DNA of 64,000 nucleotides from Escherichia coli. Lineage in GTDB: Bacteria > Pseudomonadota > Gammaproteobacteria > Enterobacterales > Enterobacteriaceae. The notes below the pieces were generated by a model that saw only the letters and a list, made by a program, of their open reading frames with translations, was not told the origin of the DNA and did no database searches. Below are positions 2,147-8,332 of this stretch, in pieces. The DNA lies in assembly GCF_003790525.1 (NCBI RefSeq), contig NZ_CP033635.1. One strand, written 5' to 3'. A program made the translations under genes and the position numbers. Numbering within the stretch: the first letter of the stretch is position 1; each line of letters starts with the position of its first letter.

Positions 2147-2959
2147 TCAGCACTCAACAAACTGATGCTGTTCATTAAGACGATAGCGGACTCCGGCTCG
2201 AATATTGTTTTCACCTTCAATGGCGACGGCGAAGCGAACTCTTTCACCGTCATGATATGCCAGTGCGGCGCTTCCTCCTGGCCCGAGAATAATTGAGTCG
2301 ACCACGCCCGTGCTCACTACCGTTGAATTTTCACCGCTGGCAATGATGTGTACATTGTCGCCGCTGTTGGCAATTCTGGCGTTTGCGCCAAAGCTGGCGA
2401 TTTGCACCAGATCACCATTACTGGCGACATGACACCGTTCACCCAATGTACAAACGCGTACTCGCATTCCGGTATTCGCAATCCGACTACTATCTCCAGC
2501 GCTGCTTATCCGCGAAGAATTACCGGTTACAGCAACCCGTGCGCGTTCACCGGAGCTGCCAATGTGACTGTTAAAGCCGACACTTCCAATCCGCACGCTA
2601 TAACCCATACTGGCAATTTGCGCGGCATACCCAGCGGTTGCGATTCTGGCATTATCCTCACAACAGCCGATGCGAGCATGATCGTCGCTGCGGGCAAACT
2701 GACTGCAAAATGCTCTCTCTCCGGGATCTGTGGCCAGTTTTTGCATAGAAGAAACTTCCTGATGCGCGAAGTTTTCATCCGCCAGCCATTTTTTCCACGC
2801 ATACTCAACCAGACTCTCCGCCCAGTCCGTATATCCTTCCTCAATCAGTGCATGATGAATATCGGCATAACTACCGCCGCGTGGGAAATGGCGCAGGAAC
2901 CAGCGATACATCACCGCTCCGATACGCCATTCTCGCAGGTCTGCTCGTGTAATGATCAT
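2147..2959 (-). CDS. ydhT: Uncharacterised protein YdhT (270 aa), last gene of ydhYVWXUT
   Basis: ORF length and operon position match K-12 YdhT; protein has internal short repeats. Confidence 0.8.
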   Translation of the reverse strand: MIITRADLREWRIGAVMYRWFLRHFPRGGSYADIHHALIEEGYTDWAESLVEYAWKKWLADENFAHQEVSSMQKLATDPGERAFCSQFARSDDHARIGCCEDNARIATAGYAAQIASMGYSVRIGSVGFNSHIGSSGERARVAVTGNSSRISSAGDSSRIANTGMRVRVCTLGERCHVASNGDLVQIASFGANARIANSGDNVHIIASGENSTVVSTGVVDSIILGPGGSAALAYHDGERVRFAVAIEGENNIRAGVRYRLNEQHQFVEC

Positions 2960-2962
2960 TCG

Positions 2963-3748
2963 TTAGTGCCGGTGATAGCCATCGACCATGCTTTTAAAGG
3001 TTTCGTGTGGCGTACGCCCCGTGGTGCAAAGATAAAGATGACCGAAGATAAAAAAGAGACTTATAAATGCCAGAGCAAAATGCGCCTGCAATAACCAGTA
3101 TCTTACGCCAGGAAACACATCTCCCACGGCTTGCGGATAGAGACACAGCAGCCCCGTCAATAGTAACAACGGCAGCAATCCATACATGACACCAATATAG
3201 GCAACCTGCTGTAAGGGATTAAATTTAGACTGGGTTGTTGCCGGGAAAGGATGTTCTTCCCCCTGCATAATGCCAAACAAATAGAATCGCGTTTGTTTTG
3301 CCGCTCGCTCCAGCCACCCCTGACGACGAATGCGATAGTGGTGACCATTACCCCCAACGGCATTGATCAGAACAAAGCCAAGCCAGCATGCCAGTAACAA
3401 AAATCCGCAAACTTCATGCACCGCAACCAGACTTTTAACCGCAGTTGCGCCCACCAGCGCAAAGTGATTTATCAGCCCACTTGCCAGCAACAATACAAAG
3501 AGTAACGCATTCGACCAGTGCCATAATCTGACCGCTTTGCTGTAAAGATAAACCTTCTCACCATGGTCGGTGGCTGATTTCTTCACGCCACGAGCACGAA
3601 GCAAGGCATGCAGCCCCAGCACCAACCACATCCCTACCAGCAATAGTCCGGCAATGATCAACCACACCGGCCAAAATTGGGGAGTGAACTGTGGCACATA
3701 GTTCGCCAACTGGCTCTGAAACTGTTCAGCATGTTGCGACGGGTTCAT
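2963..3748 (-). CDS. ydhU: PhsC/NrfD-like integral membrane subunit YdhU (261 aa)
   Basis: Hydrophobic 261-aa ORF; overlaps ydhX start by 4 nt (3745..3748). Confidence 0.8.
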   Translation of the reverse strand: MNPSQHAEQFQSQLANYVPQFTPQFWPVWLIIAGLLLVGMWLVLGLHALLRARGVKKSATDHGEKVYLYSKAVRLWHWSNALLFVLLLASGLINHFALVGATAVKSLVAVHEVCGFLLLACWLGFVLINAVGGNGHHYRIRRQGWLERAAKQTRFYLFGIMQGEEHPFPATTQSKFNPLQQVAYIGVMYGLLPLLLLTGLLCLYPQAVGDVFPGVRYWLLQAHFALAFISLFFIFGHLYLCTTGRTPHETFKSMVDGYHRH

Positions 3749-4413
3749 ACATTTTCCTTTTTAATCAAATGTTGACCGAACCGGCGATACAGGTGCGGTT
3801 TCCCGGCACCAGGTAGCTGATATTGATAGTATTTATTTTCCTGCAACCACGCCTGAATTTCTGGGCTATCTTCGCGACCAAAGATCAAGGCGTGTTCCGG
3901 GCAGGCGCTGACGCAAATGGGCGGAAAGCCTTTTGCCAGTCGGGACTCAGCGCAGAAATCACATTTATCTGCCACTTTAGTGACAGGGTTAAGGTAGCGA
4001 ACCTGGTAAGGACAAGCGCCAATGCAATAACTGCAGCCGATGCACTGCGATTTTTCTACCCGTACGATCCCCTGCTCATCACGCCACGATGCCGCTGTCG
4101 GACAAACGTCGATGCACGGAGCATCTTCGCAGTGCTGACATGACTGGCGAAAAAAGTGATACTGCGTTTCGTTGTCGTTATCGGTGACTGGAATGTGTGC
4201 TATCGATAAACGGCTTCCCTGAGCGGGGACGTGATTGGTTTTACGGCATGCGCGGGCGCAAATATTACAGCCATTGCACCGTGACTCGTCATGAATCATG
4301 GCATACCGAACTTTCTTTTCTTGCCTCGTGTTCGCTAACAGAGAAGACGCAGAACCAGTAAAAAAGATTACTGTTCCCATCCCCAGAACAAATTTGCGTC
4401 GAGTGAAGGACAT
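3745..4413 (-). CDS. ydhX: Tat-exported 4Fe-4S ferredoxin-like protein YdhX (222 aa)
   Basis: Multiple CxxCxxCxxxCP motifs; N-terminal SFTRRKFVLG twin-arginine signal. ORF track starts at 4464; I place the start at 4413 to match the 222-aa protein. Confidence 0.75.
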   Translation of the reverse strand: MSFTRRKFVLGMGTVIFFTGSASSLLANTRQEKKVRYAMIHDESRCNGCNICARACRKTNHVPAQGSRLSIAHIPVTDNDNETQYHFFRQSCQHCEDAPCIDVCPTAASWRDEQGIVRVEKSQCIGCSYCIGACPYQVRYLNPVTKVADKCDFCAESRLAKGFPPICVSACPEHALIFGREDSPEIQAWLQENKYYQYQLPGAGKPHLYRRFGQHLIKKENV

Positions 4414-4476
4414 CTGATTATCCCCTAATGCAGTGGCTGCAACTGTCCACCCTATCCATGACATCTCCCTGAAATT

Positions 4477-5124
4477 TCAGGGGTTCTGAAACTGCTCTAC
4501 CTCGAACCATTCGCATAAGCCATACGCCTTGCCATAGGTCATAAATCGCTCGCTAAACAAGTACAACACCGCCGTCGATGACTCCACCTGCCGTATATCG
4601 GCATATTCAGGTGCAACATCCATCGCGGCGATCGCGGCTTCAATCTGCGCTTCCTGGAAGTAATATGGCGCTTGCATCAGCATGGCGACTTTGTAAGGAC
4701 GAGGATACGTCTGGCACTCAAAACGAACGGCGTGTGCAATGGCACGACAAATGTCCTGCTCCACAACTTGCAAAGACATCGCCGCGTAGTTTTCACTCAT
4801 GGCCTGCGTTGAGTAATAGTAATCATCCTGGCTTCCCGTCATACACGCGATATCCGCGTAGTCTCCGTTCTGCTTAATGTTTTCCAGCAAAACTGGCAGT
4901 TCCTCTTCTGCAACCGAATAGGGTGGCGAGAGAAACACGGTGCGCGCCACCAGCTGCCCAGCCGCAGAATGCTGGCGAATGAACTCTGCCAGGATTTCAG
5001 CCGGTTCTGGTTCGGTTACCGTATCAACGGGGTGACGCATCCCCTGCAACCATTGCCGCTTCGCCTCATCAATTTCACTGACTTCCGCTAACGGCAATTC
5101 ATCCTGATGGTTCATCTCTCCCAT
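4477..5124 (-). CDS. ydhW: Uncharacterised protein YdhW (215 aa)
   Basis: ORF 4477..5124; length and position match K-12 YdhW. Confidence 0.8.
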   Translation of the reverse strand: MGEMNHQDELPLAEVSEIDEAKRQWLQGMRHPVDTVTEPEPAEILAEFIRQHSAAGQLVARTVFLSPPYSVAEEELPVLLENIKQNGDYADIACMTGSQDDYYYSTQAMSENYAAMSLQVVEQDICRAIAHAVRFECQTYPRPYKVAMLMQAPYYFQEAQIEAAIAAMDVAPEYADIRQVESSTAVLYLFSERFMTYGKAYGLCEWFEVEQFQNP

Positions 5125-7230: not shown

Positions 7231-7250
7231 GATTTTTTCCTTTGCAAGAT

Positions 7251-7877
7251 TCACACAGTAATATCTTTCCACTCGATTATTTTTAACGCCCCTGTTGGGC
7301 AGGCGTTTGCGCATTCACCGCATAACACACATTTCGAGGATTTTTTACTTTCGGTATTTACGGTGGCCATCATCCACGGGCACGCCGTCGTACAGGCGCT
7401 ACAGCCAATACAACGTTTATGATCGACGGTAATACAGCCTTCTTTCTGTTGCCAGGTAATCGCACCAATCGGGCAGACATTCATGCATTGCGGTTCTTTG
7501 CATTGACGGCAGGTGTCCGCGGTATAGTTGAGATCGCCATACAGGCCACCACCAGAGCCAACCCCGTTATCGCCAAAGAAATAATTGCGATGGATTTTGA
7601 TACGGGAGAAGAATGTCCCTACTGAGCCATCGTTGAAGTTGGTACAAGAGATTTCACAGCGGTGGCAACCCGTGCATCGAGCACGTTGGGTCACCAGCAC
7701 TCCTTTGGGTGTATTTATCAACCCTACTGTGCCGCTATCAATATCTTCCTGTTTGCAACCCAAAAGTGACAGTAACGCAGGGGCAATTGTTAAACCAGCA
7801 AGGCCTTTTCCTGATATACGCAAGAATTCTAATCGCGTTAAGCCAATATCTAATAGTGGACGATCAACCGGGTTCAT
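7251..7877 (-). CDS. ydhY: 4Fe-4S ferredoxin-like protein YdhY (208 aa)
   Basis: Several Cys clusters (CTGCHRCEISC, CIGCSACTTACP, CVLCGECANACP); first gene of the operon. Confidence 0.85.
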   Translation of the reverse strand: MNPVDRPLLDIGLTRLEFLRISGKGLAGLTIAPALLSLLGCKQEDIDSGTVGLINTPKGVLVTQRARCTGCHRCEISCTNFNDGSVGTFFSRIKIHRNYFFGDNGVGSGGGLYGDLNYTADTCRQCKEPQCMNVCPIGAITWQQKEGCITVDHKRCIGCSACTTACPWMMATVNTESKKSSKCVLCGECANACPTGALKIIEWKDITV

Positions 7878-8078
7878 TTATTTCGCATCCTCTTCGCAAA
7901 CACAGTGCTGACAATTCAGCAGATTGATATTAAGCATTCAACTAATACGCTGCTGACTCTGTCCTCAACACCAGATATTTTCCCTAACCTGATAGTGTAT
8001 GAGAAAAGATTTAACGCCGATAAACTAATCCTTTATGGTTAGGAGAAAAAATAATGTGATTATTCTGAGCCCTTAACA

Positions 8079-8092
8079 TTGATCGTTATCAA
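8079..8092. promoter_or_regulatory. Perfect FNR-consensus palindrome TTGATCGTTATCAA upstream of ydhY
   Basis: Exact match to TTGAT-N4-ATCAA at 8079..8092 in the AT-rich region upstream of ydhY; the ydhY-T operon is reported to be FNR-activated. Confidence 0.6.
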
Positions 8093-8332
8093 TTAAAATC
8101 ACAAAGCAAGAAATTATAAGTGAACTGATATTTATTATCATTTGAAATAAATTTAACTTAAGCGACAATTATTTGTGACGGTCATTGCAGAAAACAAAAA
8201 TAATATTATCGTTATAAATTAAAACACATATCGAAATTCGTATAATTTCAGCAGTTGTTATTTAGAATGATTAACTCGACCGCAACTGAAGCAAGAATAT
8301 CAGGATGAAGCTTATCGCCTCATCCTGAATGG

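Follow-up and report, generated by a model that had tools for sequence, protein, structure and literature searches.

The ydhYVWXUT operon of Escherichia coli: an FNR-activated promoter and a probable periplasm-facing, quinol-linked molybdenum enzyme

Gene content of the operon

The ydhYVWXUT operon was analyzed in a stretch of 64,000 nucleotides of Escherichia coli DNA (RefSeq assembly GCF_003790525.1, contig NZ_CP033635.1), hereafter called the window, to which all positions refer. Window positions 2000-8700 are 100% identical to the chromosome of E. coli SMS-3-5, a matching segment is found in 5425 of 5426 complete E. coli genomes, and the stretch is the core-genome operon ydhYVWXUT. The list of open reading frames coincides with the genes that RefSeq annotates in this segment of SMS-3-5. 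Both give six genes, all on the minus strand, from ydhY at 7877 to ydhT at 2147, which agrees with an earlier reading of the sequence alone (the original prediction) that had described six co-directional genes. They are ydhY (7251-7877), ydhV (5128-7230), ydhW (4477-5115), ydhX (3745-4413), ydhU (2963-3748; phsC in RefSeq) and ydhT (2147-2959), and they are closely packed, with spacings of 20 nt (Y-V), 12 nt (V-W), 63 nt (W-X), -4 nt (X-U, where the start of ydhU overlaps the stop of ydhX by 4 nt) and 3 nt (U-T). In K-12 the operon and its promoter, PydhY, occupy the same locus with the same gene order and the same neighbors (ydhS at one end, and fumD, ynhH and pykF at the opposite end), and the two differ by strain polymorphism only: E. 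coli strains show 93-100% identity in the intergenic region, and ydhS is frameshifted in SMS-3-5. Published work already covers the operon, the class II FNR site, the other regulatory inputs and the YdhV cofactor.

YdhV is the catalytic subunit and belongs to the aldehyde:ferredoxin oxidoreductase (AOR)/WOR family, within clade 41, or Class V. The family assignment of the original prediction is borne out by matches to AFOR_N (PF02730, 1e-67) and AFOR_C (PF01314, 9e-48) in a scan of Pfam and NCBIfam. The protein carries the iron-sulfur motif C307-x2-C310-x3-C314 (CxxCxxxC), and its Cys336 lies within GGNTCVANF, a motif also present in three YdhV-like proteins of other loci. In a sequence search of the PDB, which returned no structure of YdhV itself, the nearest solved structures were AORs and BamB, the latter matching at 8.7e-44. 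Cys336 has been described as an extra metal ligand common only to YdhV and BamB (Cys322 in BamB), and YdhV is reported to lack the second-shell residues of AORs. Analysis of the metal cofactor, which the original prediction had suggested as a check, has been in the literature since 2019: YdhV reportedly binds a redox-active bis-molybdenum-molybdopterin (bis-Mo-MPT) with Mo preferred over W, and Cys336 serves as a ligand (Reschke 2019, as summarized in other papers). That study reportedly found no substrate, possibly because purification costs the protein its [4Fe-4S] cluster. The original prediction had also stated that the substrate was still unknown, and this holds as of June 2026, when a classification assigned both YdhV and YdhY to clade 41 (Class V) and gave no substrate (PMC13328260). 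In that work the clade-41 L subunit of C. somerae was inactive on 46 aldehydes, and the role of the third gene was called unknown (PMC13328260). YdhV has been described as the first E. coli enzyme shown to bind a bis-Mo-MPT cofactor; it represents a large, gut-associated clade of enzymes without a known reaction, and this substrate gap is acknowledged in the literature.

YdhY and YdhX are ferredoxin-like, as had been proposed: each carries four Cys groups like those of four-cluster ferredoxins. YdhY is a small subunit of the WorS type, whose nearest solved relatives in the PDB include the WOR/AOR small subunits 8c0z_C, 9mqx_E and 6x6u_B. YdhX, of the NrfC/PsrB/FdnH type, has 16 Cys and is closest to PsrB (1e-33), ArrB and FdnH. 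Its N-terminus, MSFTRRKFVLGMGTVIFFTGSASSLLA, contains a canonical T-R-R-K-F-V-L (consensus [ST]-R-R-x-F-L-K) and, after it, a hydrophobic region, so the proposed export of YdhX by the twin-arginine translocation (Tat) pathway stands as a predicted signal. Residues 1-41 of YdhY (7755-7877) hold T-R-L-E-F-L, a hydrophobic region and a lipobox, LLGC, with Cys41. Published SignalP 6 results are Tat/SPI for YdhX and Tat/SPII for YdhY (PMC13101318).

The YdhY signal varies among its relatives. In E. coli and the homologues closer to it, T-R-[L/Q/K]-x-F-L is followed by a conserved hydrophobic region and then mostly by an L-x-G-C lipobox. At 57% identity or less, the homologues show a canonical [ST]-R-R-x-F-[LM]-K, which a lipobox often accompanies. 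We compared eight loci (including L007, L009 and L012-L016): four with the gene order S-L-W, three metagenomic Y-V-W-X-U loci and that of E. coli. The S subunit has RR in 4/4 S-L-W loci, none of which contains X or U; three of the four encode TatA, alone or with TatC, and three encode FdhD. In the three metagenomic Y-V-W-X-U loci and in E. coli, YdhY has R-x and the canonical RR is found in YdhX. The second Tat arginine of YdhY has been lost in the E. coli-type clade and the canonical RR kept by YdhX, a pattern that, in this small sample, probably reflects a single evolutionary event.

YdhU is a PhsC-type cytochrome b. It matches PF01292 (cytochrome b561/Ni_hydr_CYTB) at 8.9e-31 and the PhsC equivalog PRK15006 with 458 bits against a cut-off of 204, and it has five predicted hydrophobic transmembrane segments with His residues in or beside them. 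The original prediction had called it PhsC/NrfD-like; the PhsC part stood and the NrfD part did not, as no NrfD/PsrC-type family in Pfam or NCBIfam matched at E <= 0.01. The PDB sequence search found no solved relative of YdhU. In the operon of Edwardsiella tarda (L017, 8001-13265), the gene order is Y-V-W-X-T without ydhU, and a convergent nap cluster, with a gene for a NapC-type cytochrome among its members, lies beside it.

The FNR box and the ydhY promoter

Upstream of ydhY lies the palindrome TTGATCGTTATCAA at 8079-8092 (TTGATAACGATCAA on the coding strand of ydhY, the minus strand), which consists of perfect FNR half-sites. It is the sole TTGAT-N4-ATCAA in the window, where 0.07 would be expected by chance and where at least one occurred in 6 of 100 shuffles. 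Its center is 208.5 nt from the ydhY ATG. An exact FNR consensus at this position, about 200 bp upstream of the ydhY start, had been reported in the original prediction, and exactness, position and distance are all confirmed. We aligned 455 bp of the control region from six strains, namely SMS-3-5, MG1655 and four divergent E. coli. From the box through the -10 region MG1655 is identical to the window, and the half-sites are invariant in 6/6 strains while the flanks and one central base vary.

Because the box-to--10 sequence is identical, regulatory data from K-12 can be transferred to the window. Myers 2013 (PMC3688515) report the operon as positive in FNR chromatin immunoprecipitation sequencing (ChIP-seq) and as activated by FNR, and they cite Partridge 2008 for a site at -42.5; ydhYVWXUT is listed in the literature with the FNR-regulated molybdoenzyme operons. 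This spacing, together with the identical sequence, bears out a class II geometry for the box, on which the original prediction had staked its reading of the promoter, and the promoter mapping that it had named as a check dates from 2008. Applied to the window, the K-12 spacing would place a -10 hexamer, CATTAT, at 8051-8056 (minus strand, -13 to -8) and the transcription start at 8043 on the same strand, 42.5 nt downstream of the box center. Under anoxia, a [4Fe-4S]-FNR dimer would bind TTGATAACGATCAA at -42.5 and activate transcription of ydhYVWXUT, as shown in the K-12 literature. FNR-like sites with one mismatch also occur within 600 bp upstream of the ydhY orthologues of Edwardsiella, Budvicia and a third Y-V-W-X-U locus, and none was found in the six other loci searched; by our estimate, which assumes equal base frequencies, about 0.02 such sites per locus are expected by chance.

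Just downstream of the proposed start, at +3 to +18, lie inverted heptamers in a 7-2-7 arrangement that resemble a NarL/NarP site (TAACCATAAAGGATTA, 8026-8041, minus strand). They match the consensus at 14 of 16 positions and are invariant in 6/6 strains, and we treat them as a positional lead only. NarL and NarP reportedly do regulate the operon, to judge from the title of the 2008 paper by Partridge, and nitrate or nitrite might block PydhY through this site.

A proposed enzyme and competing readings

The gene identities, the operon layout and the FNR box support the architecture of an anaerobic respiratory oxidoreductase, as originally proposed. We give a probability of roughly 85% to the reading that ydhYVWXUT is driven by a class II FNR-activated promoter and that its products form a periplasm-facing, quinol-linked molybdenum enzyme. 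Most likely, this Ydh enzyme is anaerobically induced, repressed by nitrate and nitrite, and anchored in the membrane. In our model, YdhU would exchange electrons with the (mena)quinol pool, YdhX (exported by Tat) and YdhY (with its Tat-like lipoprotein signal) would form an iron-sulfur wire, and the electron route between the quinone pool and YdhV would be YdhU - YdhX - YdhY - YdhV. YdhV, with its bis-Mo-MPT, its [4Fe-4S] cluster and Cys336 as metal ligand, would carry out a probably reductive and probably non-aldehyde reaction; we favor such a reaction because of the pattern of regulation, the likeness of the anchor to PhsC and that of the active site to BamB. As YdhV has no signal peptide of its own, it would be carried across the membrane in the folded state by YdhY and/or YdhX. 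We prefer a periplasmic orientation because of the RR of YdhX, the RR of distant YdhY homologues, the TatA and TatC genes in the loci of those homologues, and published predictions, among them that of a periplasmic catalytic subunit (PMC4257093).

Several points weigh against this reading. The start at 8043, the -10 hexamer and the NarL/NarP site are all carried over from K-12, and the location of YdhV, the assembly of a single six-protein complex and the direction of electron flow are likewise what we infer. YdhY has R-L in place of R-R, and its own competence for Tat export is uncertain. The window holds three 7-2-7 motifs where 2.97 are expected; as the count equals chance, we dropped the NarL/NarP site as independent statistical evidence. 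The fold modelled for YdhW (described below) is common to many DNA-binding proteins, so the protein may have a regulatory role, and YdhT fits nowhere in the proposed enzyme.

The proposed enzyme resembles several known systems, each in part. The Class V (clade 41) W/Mo oxidoreductases likewise have an L subunit (YdhV) and an S subunit (YdhY) whose N-terminus is of the Tat type, and their third gene is similar to that of YdhW; they are associated with the membrane or periplasm, have no known substrate, and include E. coli Ydh as a named example (PMC13328260). The E. coli type differs from them in adding YdhX, YdhU and YdhT, in preferring Mo over W, and in the lost second Tat Arg of its S subunit. 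With BamB, Ydh has in common the AOR-family fold, the Cys metal ligand and the lack of the second-shell residues of aldehyde oxidases. BamB, however, is a cytoplasmic tungsten enzyme within BamBC, which belongs to the larger BamB-I electron-transfer machinery, whereas Ydh prefers Mo and is linked to Tat and to a cytochrome b. Finally, PhsABC/PsrABC and FdnGHI likewise combine a Tat-exported four-cluster beta subunit (YdhX being like PsrB, ArrB and FdnH) with a membrane subunit for quinol or quinone (YdhU being like PhsC). Unlike theirs, the catalytic subunit of Ydh is an AOR-family bis-MPT protein rather than a member of the DMSO-reductase family with bis-molybdopterin guanine dinucleotide, and Ydh has an extra ferredoxin, YdhY, and lacks a subunit of the NrfD/PsrC type.

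The direction of flow could be the reverse of the one that we favor, with YdhV oxidizing a periplasmic substrate and YdhU reducing menaquinone, which would make Ydh a donor:quinone dehydrogenase and not a terminal reductase. The wire from YdhV through YdhY and YdhX to the cytochrome b is symmetrical as to direction, FdnGHI runs the same FdnH/FdnI-type modules as a dehydrogenase, and all other characterized AOR/WOR enzymes except BamB oxidize their substrates. We nevertheless consider this version unlikely, though well worth keeping in mind. FNR activation combined with control by nitrate and nitrite through NarL/NarP is typical of low-ranking terminal reductases, for example dms and frd. Moreover, the Cys ligand and missing second-shell residues of YdhV are common to the reductive BamB, a clade-41 enzyme showed no aldehyde oxidation, and the closest counterpart of YdhU is PhsC, which belongs to a reductase that oxidizes quinol.

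A second possibility concerns location: after decay of the twin arginine of YdhY, YdhV and YdhY might have stayed in the cytoplasm, with YdhX and YdhU forming a transmembrane conduit in the manner of Dsr or Hmc. Every Y-V-W-X-U locus examined has R-L, R-Q or R-K in place of R-R in YdhY, YdhX reaches 138 bits with the DsrO model (short of the 200 bits required), and the YdhV of some Coriobacteria has been predicted to be cytoplasmic (PMC4257093). The retention of a hydrophobic region and a lipobox Cys in YdhY after the loss of the Arg would, however, be hard to explain in a cytoplasmic protein, and SignalP 6 still assigns it to Tat/SPII (PMC13101318). In relatives that have a canonical RR the link to Tat is clear, and YdhX would be a dead end in the periplasm if its side of the membrane held no catalytic partner. 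We therefore regard a cytoplasmic YdhV as improbable and retain the periplasm-facing enzyme.

It is very improbable that YdhV is an ordinary aldehyde-detoxifying aldehyde:ferredoxin oxidoreductase, as its RefSeq product name would have it. The strong AFOR_N and AFOR_C matches and the AORs among its nearest solved structures agree with that name, but homology is weak outside the N-terminal domain (the C-terminal stretch reached 22.9 bits in the single alignment displayed), and Cys336 and the missing second-shell residues place YdhV with BamB. The membrane and Tat context is also unlike that of the cytoplasmic AORs, and no substrate was reportedly found for purified YdhV (Reschke 2019). Since the clade-41 enzyme was inactive on all 46 aldehydes and the second-shell residues are reported absent, YdhV is not likely to be an aldehyde oxidase, and its reaction is probably a non-aldehyde one.

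That the palindrome at 8079-8092 arose by chance, or belongs to another promoter (repressing a sigma-70-like ATGATA-17-TATAAT at 8141-8113 or serving a promoter on the plus strand), is scarcely credible: a TTGAT-N4-ATCAA does turn up in 6% of shuffled windows, and the region is AT-rich with many promoter-like matches, including this 10/12 one just upstream, relative to whose start the box would sit at about +20, but such matches are no commoner than in shuffles (7 versus 9.3), and the K-12 data (ChIP-seq occupancy, FNR-dependent activation and -42.5 spacing on an identical sequence) have already effectively refuted this view, to which the half-sites held constant amid varying flanks and the recurrence of FNR-like sites upstream of orthologues are also opposed.

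YdhW, YdhT and neighboring features

YdhW and YdhT had been left as proteins of unknown function, and this remains a fair description: neither has a match in our local copy of Pfam, the newer families PF27264 (YdhW_C) and PF27195 (YdhT_N) are merely named for these proteins, and no sequence relative with a solved structure was found for either in the PDB search. YdhW is acidic (isoelectric point 4.36) and is modelled with confidence as two tandem winged-helix domains, at a predicted local distance difference test score (pLDDT) of 92.9. In the neighborhoods that we inspected (L007, L009-L018), its gene adjoins the AFOR (YdhV-like) gene in 9/9 loci that contain one, often near FdhD, tatA and tatC. 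Most likely, YdhW would be a cytoplasmic protein dedicated to maturation, or an export escort, rather than an electron carrier. In this it recalls TorD/DmsD/NarJ and NapD: it is small and cytoplasmic, it lacks a cofactor-binding motif, and its gene adjoins that of a Tat-dependent pterin enzyme, in many cases together with FdhD and TatAC. It differs from them in its model of tandem winged helices, as opposed to the all-helical TorD, and in that chaperone activity is only a candidate function for it. A TorD-like chaperone by homology was ruled out, as YdhW has no similarity in sequence or fold to the all-helical TorD family.

A more far-reaching hypothesis, which we offer tentatively and think doubtful, would be that YdhW (PF27264) represents an unrecognized, non-TorD class of escort or maturation proteins for Tat-exported pterin enzymes of the AOR family. 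The gain of YdhX and YdhU would then have shifted Tat targeting to YdhX and let the RR of YdhY decay to R-L/Q/K, its N-terminus being kept as a lipid anchor or as a dock for YdhW.

YdhT is modelled as an N-terminal helical bundle followed by a beta-solenoid of nonapeptide repeats, with a Gly every 9 residues over about 12-14 repeats. The YdhT proteins of Edwardsiella and Jinshanibacter have additional repeats, and the family is very narrowly distributed. Together with the variation in the YdhY signal, these features of YdhW and YdhT may aid the design of holoenzyme purification and localization work.

The ydhY promoter has further published inputs. A Fur ChIP peak has been described there, as has regulation by Fur in CFT073; the operon is preferentially transcribed by the sigma-S holoenzyme in vitro and is rpoS-dependent in stationary phase. 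The best 19-mer match to a Fur box carries 5 mismatches, too weak to call. This AT-rich, Fur-box-like stretch and ATGATA-17-TATAAT lie together on the minus strand at 8113-8145, just upstream of the FNR box.

The 5' untranslated leader would extend over 7878-8042 (minus strand), about 166 nt including the start base, and has no recognizable RNA element. An Rfam search of the leader at E <= 1 gave no match and its folding was unremarkable (z-score -1.08 versus shuffles), which rules out a riboswitch or other leader RNA, such as a molybdenum cofactor riboswitch. Some 30 nt upstream of the ydhY ATG, a short hairpin at 7906-7921 (6 bp, then a T-rich run) was scored as terminator-like on both strands.

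On the ydhT side, downstream, lies the convergent ydhS, annotated in SMS-3-5 as a frameshifted pseudogene at 538-2135. This gene for an FAD/NAD(P)-binding protein is broken into two open reading frames, 538-1683 and 1782-2135, and the MG1655 copy is intact. At the other end, the upstream edge of the ydhY control region is marked by the strong intrinsic terminator of fumD (8300-8328, listed on the minus strand), a 12-bp stem followed by a T-rich tail. Farther on, the small annotated reading frame ynhH (64 amino acids, 8897-9091, plus strand) lies directly upstream of pykF.

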